Shown here one piece after another: positions 110-4,174 of a DNA stretch of 47,983 nt. The position numbers were made by a program, and so were the translations under genes. Within the stretch, counting starts at the first letter, position 1. Each line of letters opens with the position of its first letter. The stretch comes from Candidatus Woesearchaeota archaeon (GTDB taxonomy: Archaea > Nanobdellota > Nanobdellia > SCGC-AAA011-G17 > PNOQ01), in contig JBDRML010000023.1 in NCBI GenBank assembly GCA_043812195.1, positions 1-47,983 on the forward strand, read 5' to 3'. The notes under the pieces were generated by a model that was not told the DNA's origin, made no database searches, and saw nothing but the letters and a program-made list of their open reading frames with translations.

Positions 110-250
110 CTATTCTTTCAACTCTTCAGGCTTCTCCTCTCTAAAACCACACTGTTTACAATATTTCACAAAATACATTCCATCATCAAATTTATGCTGC
201 CCTTCATGTAAATCAGCTCCACATTCTGGACATTTATGAATCTCTTTCAT
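110..250 (-). CDS. Small zinc-ribbon protein (46 aa), not in the ORF track
   Basis: Hand translation MKEIHKCPECGADLHEGQHKFDDGMYFVKYCKQCGFREEKPEELKE; two CxxC pairs; ATGA overlap with the ppsA stop. Confidence 0.75.
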   Translation of the reverse strand: MKEIHKCPECGADLHEGQHKFDDGMYFVKYCKQCGFREEKPEELKE

Positions 251-2550
251 CTTCTAGCAGCTTCCAACATCAATTTTTTCTCTTCAGTAGCCACAGTTCT
301 CTTAATCTTATTAACAGCATCTCTATTTGCAGATATAGAATCAATTCCAACCCTAACTAAAAAACTAGCCATTTCTGGCTTAGAACCAGCCTGACCACAA
401 ATACTAGTAGTAACCCCAAACTTCTTACAAGTTTCTATAACCTTTTTCATCTCACCCAAAACAGCAGGATGCATCTCATTAAATTGTTTTTGAATTTTAG
501 CATTATTCCTATCAATACCTAAAGTAAGTTGCGTCAAATCATTAGTCCCAAAACTAACAAAATCTATACCCTCTTGACATAACTCTTCAATAATCCAACA
601 ACTAGCAGGAGTTTCAATCATAACACCAAACTGAACATCTTTTTGAGGTTCTAATCCAATTTCCCTCATTAATTCTTTAGCTTTTCTAACTTCATCAACA
701 TCAATAACAAATGGCAACATCACACCAACATTCTTAATTCCATCATCACGCAATCTTTTCACAGCTTCAAATTCAGCTTTCAAAACTTCGGGTTGATCTA
801 ATAATCTTCTAATAGCATGCCAGCCAATCATAGGGTCAGTTTCTTTAGGTTGATCTTCACTGCCTTTTAATTGAGTATATTCATCAGTTCTCATATCACT
901 ATTTCTAATCCAAACAGGTTTATCTCCAAATGCTTTAGCAATACCTCCAATACCATCATATAATAATTTGACATAATCCTCTTTTCTATTTTCTTTAATA
1001 TATTGATCAGGCCAAATTCCACCATTAGCAATCATAAATTCTAATCTAACCAAACCAACACCATCAACATTCATAGCAGCAGCTTTTTCAGCAAACTCAG
1101 GCAAATCACTAATTACTTTTATCTTAGTAATAGTTTCAACATCAATAGGAGTATCATCAATTTCAACAGACTCAACTTCAGCTCTGCCACCATAAACTTT
1201 CCCACCAGCACCATCAACAGTAACAATATCACCATCTTTTAATTTAGTTGTAGCTTCTTTAGTTCCAACAATAGCAGGAATTCCCATTTCTCTAGAAACA
1301 ATAGCAGCATGAGAAGTTAAACCACCCTCATCAGTAACAATAGCCACAGCTTTTTTCATTGTAGGAACCATATCAGGATTAGTCATTCCAGTAACTAAAA
1401 CATCACCTTCAACAACATTACCTAATTCACTCATATCCTTAACAATTTTTACAGGACCACTAGCAACACCAGGAGATGCGCCCATTCCTTCTAAAATCGC
1501 TTCACCTTTAAATTTCTCTCTTTCTCCAGAAGTAGCTTTAGCAATTCTTTTCTGTGTTGTTACAGGTCTGCTCTGAACCAAATAAACTCTATTCCCCTCA
1601 ATAGCAAACTCCATATCTTGAGGCTTACCATAAAATTCTTCAACTTTTTTAGCCATAGTAGCTAGAACTTTAATTTCTTCTTCATTCAGAATTTGTTTTT
1701 TACCTCTTTCTCCTAATTCTCTTTTTATATTTCTTCCCACATTAGGATCTCTCATAATCATCCATTCTTGAACATTAATTTTTTTCTTTATCAATTCTAA
1801 ACTCTCTTTATCTACAATATATTCATCAGGAGTAATAGAACCAGACACAACAGCTTCACCAAGACCAAATCCAGCTTCAATTATAATCTCATTCTCATTA
1901 TTAGTAGCAGGATTAATACTAAACATCACTCCAGCCTTTTCAGAATTAACCATTTTTTGAACTATAACAGAGATATAAACTTTAGAATGTTCAAATCCAT
2001 TCTCCTCTCTATAATAAATAGCCCTTCCAGTATACAAAGAAGCCCAGCACTGATGAACAGCCTGAATAACATTATCAACACCCCTAACATTCAAATATGT
2101 TGCTTGTTGGCCAGCAAATGAAGCCTCTGGCAAATCTTCAGCCGTAGCAGAACTTCTAACAGCAACAAAAGGAAAATCCCTCCCAGCTTTCACAAAATCA
2201 AGAGCCTTTTGATTCAATAAAACTTCTGGCCTAACATTCATATGCTCATAAGTTTTCTTAATATCATTCCTTACATTAAGAGGCATATCTGTTTCTAGAA
2301 TTAAATTCTGTATTTTCTGAGAAGAATTAGTTAATTGTGTAGTATCTTCAATATCTGTTTGCTCCAATATTTTATCTATCTTAGGTTGCAATCCAGATAA
2401 TTGAATAAATTCCTTATAAGCATCAGCAGTTACAGCAAAACCAGGGGGCACAGGAAACTTAGCATTATACATTTCTCCTAATGAAGCAGCTTTCCCCCCA
2501 ACAATTTCAACATCATTTTTACTTATATCTTTAAACTGAATTATATTCAT
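247..2550 (-). CDS. ppsA: Phosphoenolpyruvate synthase (pyruvate, water dikinase)
   Basis: VGGKAASLGEM, VAVRSSATAEDLPEASFAGQQ, GGLTSHAAIVSRE phospho-His motif, SFGTNDLTQ; ATG at 2550 with GAGGTG RBS and TAATG overlap. Confidence 0.97.
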   Translation of the reverse strand: MNIIQFKDISKNDVEIVGGKAASLGEMYNAKFPVPPGFAVTADAYKEFIQLSGLQPKIDKILEQTDIEDTTQLTNSSQKIQNLILETDMPLNVRNDIKKTYEHMNVRPEVLLNQKALDFVKAGRDFPFVAVRSSATAEDLPEASFAGQQATYLNVRGVDNVIQAVHQCWASLYTGRAIYYREENGFEHSKVYISVIVQKMVNSEKAGVMFSINPATNNENEIIIEAGFGLGEAVVSGSITPDEYIVDKESLELIKKKINVQEWMIMRDPNVGRNIKRELGERGKKQILNEEEIKVLATMAKKVEEFYGKPQDMEFAIEGNRVYLVQSRPVTTQKRIAKATSGEREKFKGEAILEGMGASPGVASGPVKIVKDMSELGNVVEGDVLVTGMTNPDMVPTMKKAVAIVTDEGGLTSHAAIVSREMGIPAIVGTKEATTKLKDGDIVTVDGAGGKVYGGRAEVESVEIDDTPIDVETITKIKVISDLPEFAEKAAAMNVDGVGLVRLEFMIANGGIWPDQYIKENRKEDYVKLLYDGIGGIAKAFGDKPVWIRNSDMRTDEYTQLKGSEDQPKETDPMIGWHAIRRLLDQPEVLKAEFEAVKRLRDDGIKNVGVMLPFVIDVDEVRKAKELMREIGLEPQKDVQFGVMIETPASCWIIEELCQEGIDFVSFGTNDLTQLTLGIDRNNAKIQKQFNEMHPAVLGEMKKVIETCKKFGVTTSICGQAGSKPEMASFLVRVGIDSISANRDAVNKIKRTVATEEKKLMLEAARR

Positions 2551-3635
2551 TACACACACACCTCAATCATATTTAATTCATCTTTTACCGAATTTTTACA
2601 TTTTAGAAATTCATAATTTATATCTTTTGATGCATTATATTTGAACATAGAGAAGGCCTTCAGGAATTGATGATATTTAGTCATATTCAAACGAATTAAT
2701 CCATACTTAAATATTTTTATAAAATTCTTTCTATTATGAATCACAATGTCATTTTTTTCTATTTTAGATTTTATATCTAATTCACCAAGTAATTTTTTAT
2801 AAATTTTTTTCTCATTATTATTTAAACAACCTATTCTCACACTGTCTAAACTCTTTGTTTTAGTTAATTTTACGTTGCCCTCTCCAGCTATTAAACCTTG
2901 CATATAATAAATAATCTCTTGAGTATTATTTAAACGAATTTCTATATTTTTTATTAAATTATAGATTAGTTGATACAGAATTATATTAGAATAATATACT
3001 TTCAAACATCCATATTGTGTAACTGGAAGACGGATGTTTTTATATTTTTTATTCCCAGTATAATAAAAAATTTTAATATCTTTTTGATTAGAATTTATTT
3101 TTGTATTTCTAAACCAATGTTTTAAAGCTTCACACTCTCTATTTTCTATTTCTTCTGAAAGTTCTATTTGTTTAAGTTTATAATTAAAAGTTATATTCCA
3201 CTTCCATTGTTCTGGATTTATACCAAACATCTTAAAAAAATGCAAAATAGTATTTATAGAATTTTTGTCACTATTTGAGAAAATTACATTAGAAAATCTT
3301 AACTTATATTTTGTCATTTCAGCTTGCAAAAGACCCATGGCATTAAGCGTTAATTTATCTAAAGGAATTTCTTTTGGGATTATTAGGTGTTTATACCTTT
3401 TTCCTAAATTCTTGTTTATGTGCTGATTCCTTCCAGCTGGCCAAGAATAAATTAAACAAAGTTTGTTATTAGGTATCAATACATGTTCTTGTGTATAAAA
3501 ACCGTAATATCTATCTTTAGTGTTTCTTATTAATAATTTTTTATTTTCATAGATTTCCAATTCATAAGTTTTATTTCCCGATTTAGTAAAAATATTTTGG
3601 GGAACAATATCCTTGAATTGTAAAATATTAGTCAT
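2550..3635 (-). CDS. Free-standing double-motif LAGLIDADG homing-endonuclease-like protein
   Basis: Motif-like helices NAMGLLQAEMTK (followed by VIFSNSD) and YMQGLIAGEGNV; basic, Lys/Ile/Asn-rich. Confidence 0.7.
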   Translation of the reverse strand: MTNILQFKDIVPQNIFTKSGNKTYELEIYENKKLLIRNTKDRYYGFYTQEHVLIPNNKLCLIYSWPAGRNQHINKNLGKRYKHLIIPKEIPLDKLTLNAMGLLQAEMTKYKLRFSNVIFSNSDKNSINTILHFFKMFGINPEQWKWNITFNYKLKQIELSEEIENRECEALKHWFRNTKINSNQKDIKIFYYTGNKKYKNIRLPVTQYGCLKVYYSNIILYQLIYNLIKNIEIRLNNTQEIIYYMQGLIAGEGNVKLTKTKSLDSVRIGCLNNNEKKIYKKLLGELDIKSKIEKNDIVIHNRKNFIKIFKYGLIRLNMTKYHQFLKAFSMFKYNASKDINYEFLKCKNSVKDELNMIEVCV

Positions 3636-3699
3636 TTTTCCTCTTTTTAATTTAACAACTTATCCAATTTTATAAAGGTTTTGATATTCAATAACTATG

Positions 3700-4146
3700 T
3701 TATACATACTTTTCTCCTTTTTTCTTTCTATTAAAAAACCATATGCTAAATAAAAATAAGAAAATAAATATTAAATATTCTAATCTGATTATATTTATAT
3801 CTATTTTTGGTTTTACAGCAAAGAACAAAAAAATGTTATGGGCAATACTCAAAAAAATTATTGCTATAAGAGCATTTATGAGTCTGTATTCGTGTCTTAT
3901 AATTTTATGTTTATATTCATGCTCAATTCTAGGGATCAGTTCTAAATTTTCTATACGATTATTTAATTTATTCCTATCTCTATGATGAACTTGATAATCT
4001 TGAAAATCGTAAGGATATTTTTTTCTATTTTTCGCCCAAATCTCTCTTTTTGCTATAGTTCTATGAACAGATTCATTACTAACTTTCCACCTTTTATACC
4101 CTTTATAGTCTATAAAAGTTTTTTCTTCAAATTCTTTTTTATCCAT
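3700..4146 (-). CDS. HNH endonuclease with two C-terminal transmembrane helices
   Basis: VHR...VHHRDRNKLNNRIENLELIPRIEHEYKH HNH signature; two hydrophobic C-terminal stretches; ATG 4146 preferred to the track start 4167. Confidence 0.8.
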   Translation of the reverse strand: MDKKEFEEKTFIDYKGYKRWKVSNESVHRTIAKREIWAKNRKKYPYDFQDYQVHHRDRNKLNNRIENLELIPRIEHEYKHKIIRHEYRLINALIAIIFLSIAHNIFLFFAVKPKIDINIIRLEYLIFIFLFLFSIWFFNRKKKGEKYV

Positions 4147-4174
4147 ATAATAAAAGAAACTAAACAACTATTTA

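Follow-up and report, generated by a model that had tools for sequence, protein, structure and literature searches.

Homing endonucleases have, to our knowledge, been thought to survive inside essential genes only by means of self-splicing introns or inteins, and free-standing homing endonuclease genes (HEGs) are known mainly from phages and organelles, where they lie between genes or split them. A mitochondrial element with a duplicated host-gene terminus has reportedly been found at atp6 of Allomyces. Among the closest described systems are the free-standing seg and mob endonucleases of T-even phages, for which parts of PMC2988022 describe 'intronless homing', including the in-gene insertions of mobE in nrdA of phage Aeh1 and of mobA in gene 60 of T4, as well as, in phage T4, one-sided homing with illegitimate repair at microhomology. 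Parts of the work on Tremella fuciformis mitochondria describe 'introns with N-terminal duplication', in which a portion of the host gene is replaced by foreign sequence (PMC7315562; review PMC8393795). Here we analyse a 47,983-nucleotide stretch of DNA (the window; contig JBDRML010000023.1 of assembly GCA_043812195.1) from a Candidatus Woesearchaeota archaeon, in which an open reading frame (ORF) for a LAGLIDADG endonuclease immediately precedes ppsA, the gene for phosphoenolpyruvate synthase, and starts very much like it. This ORF is likely a free-standing HEG with two LAGLIDADG motifs, belongs to a small family found in front of or within the ppsA start in archaea with small genomes, and likely arrived there by one-sided repair. 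We computed the fold and motifs of the protein, the native-type 5' end of its gene, the linkage of the family to ppsA, its patchy distribution, its transfer between one pair of loci, and the 5'-end divergence of ppsA in carriers.

Like the T-even seg and mob genes, as far as parts of PMC2988022 describe them, the endonuclease gene has no intron or intein and lies in or beside a conserved gene; their spread by break repair with co-conversion of flanks, the ties of their expression to host-gene signals and their illegitimate one-sided joins also have likely counterparts here. The phage enzymes in these accounts are of the GIY-YIG or HNH type and reside in phage genomes, whereas here a LAGLIDADG enzyme, with predicted activity, is encoded on a cellular archaeal chromosome; and whereas the phage in-gene insertions split the host protein in two, PpsA remains whole thanks to a full second start. 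The Tremella elements, in the portions of PMC7315562 and PMC8393795 that deal with them, resemble our case in that part of the host gene comes to exist twice, the second copy being delivered or generated by the mobile element. As parts of PMC7315562 present them, they are organellar, mostly annotated as introns (three of the six not spliced), and carry an exon-sized duplicate. In contrast, the present element lies on an archaeal chromosome without an intron, its duplicate comprises only a ribosome-binding site (RBS), an ATG and about ten codons, and translation of the upstream copy yields the endonuclease N-terminus. There is also a likeness to intron ORFs fused in frame to upstream exons, through which, according to part of PMC8393795, the endonuclease gains a host translation start; those fusions are undone by RNA splicing, whereas here nothing is spliced and the host gene needs a second start.

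Both genes are encoded on the minus strand (Table 1). The endonuclease ORF (ATG 3635-3633, TAA 2552-2550) has the N-terminus MTNILQFKDIVPQ / MTNILQFKDIVPQNIFTKSGNKTY (MTNILQFKDI), and that of PpsA (ATG 2550-2548) is MNIIQFKDISKNDVEIVGGK (MNIIQFKDI). Stop and start overlap as TAATG, with A2550 common to both genes, and the GAGGTG preceding ppsA, 8 nt 5' of its ATG, falls within the final endonuclease codons (...IEVCV). A preliminary description of this DNA had pointed out the N-terminal likeness, the mostly synonymous DNA differences behind it, and the RBS and overlap supplied by the 3' end of the endonuclease gene, all of which are exact: the upstream copy (copy A) reads aat att tta caa ttc aag gat att and the downstream one (copy B) aat ata att cag ttt aaa gat ata, with 7 of 8 residues identical and a synonymous third-base difference in 5 of the 7 codons for shared residues. 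It had also held that the host gene is kept intact, and ppsA, with its own GAGGTG and ATG, indeed encodes a full-length phosphoenolpyruvate synthase with the Pfam domains PPDK_N, PEP-utilizers, and PEP-utilizers_C (904 bits against the NCBIfam equivalog NF005057, cut-off 598). A TATA-like internal stretch (gatataaatt) about 70 nt 5' of the ppsA ATG makes a separate ppsA promoter possible. A search for RNA runs that contain this part of the window gave none. The arrangement is no assembly artefact, since the ppsA/endonuclease junction is bridged in contigs of three public runs from three studies (X1 record 1, X2 record 9, X5 record 31) and two metagenome contigs (L019 and L020), which represent the window's own population, have the same arrangement at ≥99% identity.

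The origin of copy A emerges from the ppsA 5' regions of relatives (26 loci with an N-terminal match). In 23 relatives without a HEG at this place, ppsA is preceded by a TATA box (AAAnnTTTATAAAA), about 32 nt, and AGAGG(TG) before the ATG, and PpsA begins M-(T/V/S/A/K)-N-(I/V)-x-W-F-K-D-I-S-K. This is the layout of the endonuclease 5' end, which has the 17-mer aaaacctttataaaatt at the 32-nt spacing of HEG-less locus L046, the aaaagaggaaaaATG of locus L035, and then MTNILQFKDI. When a position matrix of ppsA codons 2-11 from the 23 HEG-less relatives was scored against 811 ORFs of the genome, the endonuclease 5' end ranked first with 8.9 bits (next best, -1.5); its promoter and Shine-Dalgarno score ranked 7th of 811, a less specific result as archaeal promoters look alike. 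Because layout, box, spacing, RBS, and codons all match HEG-less ppsA, copy A (3635-3606) can be identified by this comparison as the resident ppsA start. Copy B is without the second residue of the native start. Since the endonuclease gene carries exactly the 5' end of a HEG-less ppsA, it appears to have taken over the native ppsA promoter, start, and ten codons, which bears out the earlier proposal of an insertion about 10 codons into ppsA. The peptide likeness taken alone is less telling. The two N-termini have 7 identities over residues 2-12, and a random draw of 400,000 N-terminus pairs from 818 ATG-ORFs of ≥120 aa in the same genome gave at least 7 in 75 cases; because an unrelated ORF of this genome (G000 contig C29, 39672-40238, plus strand; N-terminus MPEIIDFKDINK / MPEIIDFKDINKNDI), by eye presumably Sua5/YrdC-like, also reaches 7 matches to the ppsA N-terminus by chance, the match is only about a 1-in-400 event. 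That case illustrates how easily short N-terminal likenesses arise in an AT-rich genome.

LAGLIDADG enzymes make site-specific double-strand cuts that leave 4-nt 3' overhangs. An AlphaFold2 (AF2) model of the ORF product based on 22 family members (predicted local distance difference test, pLDDT, 88.7; predicted template modelling score 0.87) contains two alpha-beta-beta-alpha-beta-beta-alpha half-domains packed via two LAGLIDADG helices. In structural comparisons with VIA, model residues 92-342 matched the endonuclease domain of PI-PfuI with Z 13.4 (root-mean-square deviation 3.0, 181 aligned residues), with Z 10.3-11.3 for I-DmoI and about 11 for I-Tsp061I, and the best Foldseek match was I-DmoI (E 6e-6, template modelling score 0.66). 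The putative catalytic acids are conserved in the family, LLQAE(106) being invariant and IAGE(252)G present in at least 90% of the 22 members, with D in the rest. By its modelled fold and motifs, the ORF product is thus predicted to be a monomeric two-motif LAGLIDADG homing endonuclease, in agreement with the preliminary description. It shares with I-DmoI, borne by an rRNA intron, and PI-PfuI, borne by an intein, the monomeric architecture with two LAGLIDADG helices that each carry an acidic residue; it differs from them in its sequence (the VIA matches to both are only 12-18% identical), in an extra 80-residue all-beta N-terminal domain, and in being neither intron- nor intein-borne. That domain (residues 11-92) is conserved in the family and presumably serves as an additional DNA-binding module. 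Residues 1-92 folded alone (AF2 pLDDT 86.4) gave no Hint or other fold among 48,161 representative chains with VIA (best Z 2.6), a blank that alone proves no new fold, and nothing at E ≤ 0.001 against the PDB with Foldseek.

An intein is recognized by a Hint domain around the endonuclease, a Cys, Ser, or Thr as first residue and at position +1, a terminal His-Asn, and a reading frame that continues into the host protein on both sides. Here, a Pfam scan of the ORF found no intein domain, the residue following the junction is Val, and the C-terminus (...EVCV) runs directly into the stop codon without His-Asn. An intron does not fit either: ppsA, of normal length, is complete and colinear 3' of the ORF with its own RBS and ATG, and upstream there are only ten fused codons. 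Because no Hint fold was found, no Pfam intein domain matched, no Cys or Ser stands at the junction, and the terminal His-Asn is lacking, the endonuclease gene is free-standing, neither intron nor intein, as had been claimed from the letters.

Table 1. Features of the ppsA 5' region in the window, with the observations that support them.
Feature	Positions	Strand	Basis
ppsA-type native promoter box aaaacctttataaaatt (TATA core 3675-3667)	3666..3682	-	TATA-to-ATG gap 32 nt; same 17-mer and spacing in HEG-less L046
Ribosome-binding site AGAGG, now serving the endonuclease ORF	3640..3644	-	same aaaagaggaaaaATG at HEG-less ppsA of L035
Copy A: putative native ppsA ATG and codons 2-10 (MTNILQFKDI), now the endonuclease N-terminus	3606..3635	-	ppsA start of relatives; codon matrix rank 1/811
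Predicted free-standing LAGLIDADG homing endonuclease gene, 361 aa	2550..3635	-	fold, motifs, family alignment
All-beta N-terminal domain, residues 11-92	3360..3605	-	family-conserved; no fold match; AF2 pLDDT 86.4
LAGLIDADG motif 1 LNAMGLLQAEMT	3312..3347	-	E106 invariant in 22 sequences; model helix 94-107
LAGLIDADG motif 2 YMQGLIAGEGNV	2871..2906	-	G251 invariant, E252 kept in ≥90%; Pfam LAGLIDADG_3 at residues 243-303; model helix 238-252
ppsA ribosome-binding site GAGGTG	2559..2564	-	GAGGTG and 8-nt spacing also at HEG-less ppsA of L030, L031, L034
Copy B: working ppsA ATG and codons 2-10 (NIIQFKDIS)	2521..2550	-	CAG for TGG, ATA for ATT, AGT for TCN relative to 25 HEG-less relatives
Intact ppsA (phosphoenolpyruvate synthase), 766 aa, without intein	247..2550	-	Pfam domains; NF005057

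The endonuclease family is small. A word-indexed search returned 35 proteins, 24 of them close (43-54% identical, about 355 aa, plus a 99% copy) and 11 distant (27-35% identical, 413-511 aa with extra C-terminal parts), and an exhaustive search of 1.84 billion sequences yielded 161 representatives at E ≤ 1e-3 but only 8 at E ≤ 1e-30. The genome itself holds a single copy without paralogue (only the ORF itself matched; four candidates scored). Any match at all was found in 13 of 401 species genomes of the same class, the window's genome included, and these contained no close homologue (best non-self match 34% identical). Genome and metagenome contig scans uncovered 12 loci with close homologues. 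In 10 of them the ppsA start lies 0-30 nt from the endonuclease stop or overlaps it; the contigs of the other two end 20-57 nt past the match, so that every assessable locus (10/10) is at a ppsA 5' end. Two of the loci (L019 and L020) correspond to the window's population and L024 repeats L015; the distinct carrier loci besides the window number seven (L015, L018, L021, L022, L023, L025, L026) and fall in at least four PpsA lineages, their PpsA being 44-57% identical to that of the window over the full length (tblastn) and 45-56% over the first 300 residues (six loci). In the six carriers with an intact endonuclease gene, the GGTG serving ppsA lies within the last endonuclease codons, as does the ATG except in L015, where the endonuclease stop lies about 25 nt 5' of the ppsA ATG. 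The stop is a TAA inside the ppsA codons TTT AAA/G (W-F-K) in L021, L025, and L026, and lies inside GTT AAT in L022 and L023; this placement within ppsA codons accounts for the recurrent ...MV and ...VV C-termini in the family alignment.

Linkage to ppsA goes together with a patchy distribution. The preliminary description had called for comparing ppsA loci with and without the ORF; the window's relatives include HEG-less loci in plenty, with HEG matches at none of their 29 ppsA loci (L030-L058). In the PpsA tree the window lies inside a family clade (support 96/99) together with 19 HEG-less rows, and the eight carrier rows need at least four changes. The same holds around two other carriers, as the only HEG match in 30 loci from relatives of L018's genome was that of L018 itself, and the only one in 30 loci from relatives of L015's genome that of L015. 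Between L022 and L023, the endonuclease genes have a synonymous divergence (dS) of 0.19, with a ratio of nonsynonymous divergence (dN) to dS of 0.22, and the ppsA genes a dS of 0.91 and a dN of 0.05 (dS 0.49 in codons 1-100 and 0.95-1.04 beyond). Because the endonuclease dS is so much lower than that of the adjoining ppsA, these sequences point to a recent transfer, for this one pair and not for the window's own copy. The similarity of the two loci begins about 70 nt 5' of the endonuclease ATG. In the 4 kb upstream, L022 and L023 have the same two genes in swapped order with different intervening DNA, a local rearrangement. L015 can be compared with the HEG-less locus L098 (PpsA 83% identical): the two have a common 21-nt promoter box, and between this box and the ppsA ATG L015 has a cassette of 1,194 nt, made up of an 86-nt leader, the endonuclease gene, and 25 nt. 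The leader (3873-3958) contains its own TATA-like box and RBS, and the N-terminus encoded behind it (MNIYIQEANNLE) is faintly, though not significantly, ppsA-like; the leader possibly dates back to an earlier host, whose promoter and N-terminus the element would have captured. Occupation of the same locus in different hosts, presence/absence polymorphism and, for L022/L023 only, higher similarity of the element than of its flanks, with a gradient, characterize the endonuclease gene, by sequence comparison, as mobile. No credible HEG-less joint across 2550-3635 appeared in contigs of four runs (sides of 21-28 nt with low likeness); as contigs are prone to drop rare variants, this does not show that the allele is missing.

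N-terminal mimicry of ppsA, which the preliminary description had suggested looking for in homologues at other loci, is not a family trait. In local alignments of each endonuclease with its own ppsA N-terminus, evaluated with 5,000 shuffles, it was significant in two of eight loci, the window (0 shuffles reaching the score) and L026 (5 shuffles), and not in L015, L018, L021, L022, L023, and L025 (1,303-3,914 shuffles). The two cases are built differently. The L026 endonuclease has about 17 ppsA-like codons (MKDIAWFKDIKKEDKLL) in front of a complete family N-terminus (..LDLTKIIPK), and its ppsA begins MSNFIKWFKDISEKEIG; in the window, the first strand of the family has given way, in register, to the ten ppsA codons (ILQFKDI-VPQ, family ILDLSKI-VPK). 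From about residue 4 onwards, the window ORF aligns with the superfamily N-terminal motif LDLxxIVPK, which is present at unrelated loci, and since the distant relatives also carry (I/L)DLxE(F/Y)(I/L)P, this first strand is intrinsic to the superfamily. For this reason, the N-terminus of the window ORF is best described, from the alignment, as chimeric, with ppsA codons 1-10 merged with the first strand that belongs to the enzyme itself. The preliminary description would have been contradicted by homologues with the same N-terminus regardless of neighbour; a shared motif does occur whatever the neighbour, but the first ten codons of the window ORF are specifically those of ppsA. Two further family proteins, P0038 (MAKNIYWFGE...) and P0010 (MKNYVRWVKS...), have ppsA-like residues before the family N-terminus and are possibly additional fusion events. 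A Lys before the Trp (IKWF), considered as a marker travelling with the element, was rejected, as the HEG-less relatives of L018 at L070 and L071 also have VKWF.

How such an arrangement could arise is suggested by the joins. The upstream joins vary, lying in the TATA-ATG interval in L015, after codon 10 in the window, and after about codon 17 in L026, and the downstream arrangement is constant; together, variable upstream and constant downstream joins fit a ppsA gene that was broken in its 5' coding region and then repaired. In the following scheme, the activity of the enzyme, the position of its target, the route of repair, the co-transcription of the two genes, and immunity are predictions. 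The family cassette would consist of the endonuclease gene, the GGTG RBS at its 3' end, and a ppsA start, so that wherever it lands ppsA would keep a working start and be transcribed with, or just behind, the endonuclease gene. The enzyme would cut a HEG-less ppsA within approximately the first 20 codons, and the break would be repaired from a carrier allele, with ppsA homology on the downstream side; in the window lineage, the join on the upstream side would have been illegitimate and in frame, directly behind codon 10 of the ppsA already in place. One-sided repair of this kind would duplicate the stretch between the ppsA start and the break. The resident promoter, RBS, ATG, and ten codons (copy A) would then drive the endonuclease, and copy B would serve ppsA via GAGGTG and the TAATG overlap. 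The positions of the joins hint at a target within about codons 5-20. We propose more tentatively, as something that may or may not prove right, that the family represents an undescribed LAGLIDADG lineage with a 'start-cassette' strategy: by carrying the RBS, start, and first codons of its target, the element could land at any point between the promoter and roughly codon 20 and the gene would survive, joins within the coding region would capture the host promoter and N-terminal codons, and the variants in codons 1-20 of carriers would be marks of immunity.

Carrier ppsA alleles do seem, from their sequences, to be unusually diverged in codons 1-20, as would fit a target in this part of the gene. 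The first 20 PpsA residues of L018 are 0.45 identical to the consensus of its relatives, the lowest of 23 (mean 0.82), and identity beyond them is average or better. L015 and L098 are 0.65 identical over the first 20 residues, as against 0.90 for the more distant pair L098/L099, and their ppsA genes are 65% identical in the first 60 nt and about 80% elsewhere. In copy B of the window, CAG replaces the TGG of 24/25 relatives, ATA stands where 0/25 have ATA, and AGT where 22/22 Ser codons are TCN (counted by eye). Such a pattern would be expected from co-converted donor sequence and likewise from selected resistance. The endonuclease gene of L018 (3995-5000, on G419:C5) is broken by a frameshift near residue 152 and by stops; it looks like a decaying element that has left a co-conversion mark, its ppsA keeping the foreign-looking first 20 residues.

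Several observations weigh against parts of the reading preferred here. The only Pfam match of the ORF, LAGLIDADG_3, is marginal (22.8 bits against a gathering threshold of 22.5, E 1.1e-4) and covers just the second half; a search of NCBIfam gave no LAGLIDADG match. The PpsA N-terminus of the window is not clearly more diverged than the rest of the protein (0.65, mean 0.76; 1 of 20 relatives lower). Copies A and B both have Q where 24/25 relatives have W. A simple model of foreign donor and native recipient does not predict this; the donor would have to be a close relative, or the start must have been duplicated in situ or the copies converted at a later time. L026 has an identical 15-nt TGGTTTAAGGATATT in both copies, and since the ppsA core TGGTTTAAGGATATT(TCT) of both L026 and L018 equals the HEG-less consensus, carriers have no common 'immune' change. 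The upstream non-homology of L022 and L023 is partly due to local gene rearrangement and is uninformative. Among carriers, pairwise identities are similar for the endonuclease (42-55%) and PpsA (45-62%), so that long co-residence may apply in some lineages. Finally, as no HEG-less allele was seen in this species, the reconstruction of the insertion event draws on relatives whose PpsA shows no more than 64% identity.

The differences between the two copies invite a more purposeful interpretation, according to which the replacement start was recoded by selection at synonymous sites, either against the enzyme's own cleavage, as the preliminary description had held, or against direct-repeat recombination that would excise the element. 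Copy B does diverge from the consensus of HEG-less relatives right at the junction, where it has ATA AGT instead of ATT TCT, codons that the relatives do not use there (0/25 ATA, 0/22 AGY Ser codons), and it also has CAG for TGG; synonymous differences separate the copies in 5 of the 7 codons for shared residues, and L018 and L015 are likewise aberrant in codons 1-20. Eight codons, however, cannot tell selection from saturation, the ppsA alleles of sister lineages (dS 0.91, dN 0.05) predict the same pattern without selection, and neither the identical cores of L026 nor the consensus core of L018 agrees with recoding, which we regard as rather unlikely. Since the L022/L023 ppsA alleles, at dS about 0.9 and dN about 0.05, show that diverged alleles suffice, the most likely source of the synonymous differences between copies A and B is a pair of diverged ppsA alleles, or else long residence, and not purposeful recoding; even so, copy B may be shielded from cleavage by its variant sequence. 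WhiA is a transcription factor derived from a LAGLIDADG protein, and the ORF product might similarly be a domesticated protein, no longer or never mobile, that serves ppsA as a regulator or as a leader for translational coupling. The constant linkage to ppsA across diverged hosts, the purifying selection (dN/dS 0.22), the presence of WhiA among the structural matches (Z 11.7), and the similar divergences of endonuclease and PpsA would all suit such a role, but a patchy gene that is absent from 19/19 tree rows of the same family and from the relatives of two other carriers, whose dS in L022/L023 is five-fold below that of the adjoining ppsA, whose copy in L018 is broken by a frameshift and stops, and which keeps both catalytic acids makes domestication improbable.

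It is more improbable still that the ORF is the remnant of an intein once inserted after PpsA residue 10, with its C-terminal splicing half lost and the remainder now a separate ORF, even if ppsA genes of the same family do contain LAGLIDADG inteins (L056, L057), a Ser follows the junction in ppsA, and the N-terminal domain of the ORF is all-beta. Those inteins sit at PpsA residue ~141-156 and not at residue 10, and the endonuclease of the L057 intein is unrelated to the ORF beyond the motif. The N-terminal domain has no Hint-like match (best Z 2.6 in 48,161 chains; none by Foldseek at E ≤ 0.001), Pfam detects no intein domain, the ORF has Val first after the junction and no terminal His-Asn, and a second complete ppsA start would be left unexplained. 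A link to the relatives' ppsA intein, tried by BLASTP of the ORF against the L057 intein, was rejected, with alignment confined to the motif region (E 0.006 over 53 residues). Least credible of all, to the point of being negligible, is plain coincidence, in which the ORF would be an ordinary upstream neighbour resembling ppsA by chance within an AT-rich, Lys/Ile/Asn-rich proteome. The C29:39672 ORF with its 7 matching positions shows that chance can produce such peptides, and the family's own first strand LDLxxIVPK is similar to begin with, but chance would have to account also for the first rank among 811 ORFs in the codon 2-11 matrix with a 10-bit gap, for a promoter box and spacing identical to those of HEG-less ppsA, for a score reached in 0/5,000 shuffles, and for a second independent case in L026.

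Other elements surround the family and its target. Directly upstream of the LAGLIDADG gene, an ORF of 155 aa (3700-4167, minus strand) encodes an HNH endonuclease (Pfam HNH_3, 2e-9, and PHROG HNH families) with a hydrophobic C-terminal half and two weaker relatives on contig C44 of the same genome; these tandem nuclease genes suggest that the region before ppsA is a hot spot for selfish elements. In the same-family relatives L056 and L057, ppsA is interrupted by an intein with LAGLIDADG at PpsA residue ~141-156 (Intein_splicing 71-84 bits, LAGLIDADG_3 44-47 bits), and long or split ppsA frames also occur in G038, G270, G336, G431, and G464 (Pfam check for L056 and L057 only). Homing elements of two kinds, an intein and the 5'-end element, have thus entered ppsA at two different sites. 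At L002, L003, L004, L006, L007, and L008, more remote relatives of the endonuclease (27-35% identity, lengths of 360-504 aa, in several cases helix-turn-helix Pfam matches in the tail) occupy a fixed place of a different kind. The ORFs preceding such relatives are, as we read them, ribosomal proteins L13 and S9 (6/12 distant loci), and at L003 the relative precedes an ORF that we take from its sequence to be RpoN-like; they may be a second, locus-specific or domesticated, branch.

A literature search, with subscription journals and supplementary files outside its scope, found no case of ppsA with a homing endonuclease in the sense described here; phosphoenolpyruvate synthase appeared together with intein and homing endonuclease only in one survey of eukaryote inteins, and no free-standing LAGLIDADG genes in DPANN archaea were described in the literature covered. 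What is new is the LAGLIDADG family, its location on a cellular archaeal chromosome with the start of a metabolic gene as home, a replacement start that preserves the whole host gene, and the capture of promoter and N-terminus. In a small-genome archaeon, a LAGLIDADG gene occupies the beginning of the coding region of a metabolic gene on the chromosome, and a second start keeps the metabolic gene whole. The locus would provide a natural, testable example of a free-standing endonuclease that reaches a new site by one-sided repair and gains host expression signals in doing so. It also indicates that the 5' ends of genes can be mosaic via co-conversion, which calls for caution in annotation and in phylogenies, and the enzyme is a new LAGLIDADG scaffold, with an additional domain at its N-terminus and a target of 20-60 bp that can be guessed. 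If the start-cassette proposal holds true, homing endonucleases would have, next to introns and inteins, a third means of residing in a protein-coding gene without costing the host anything.

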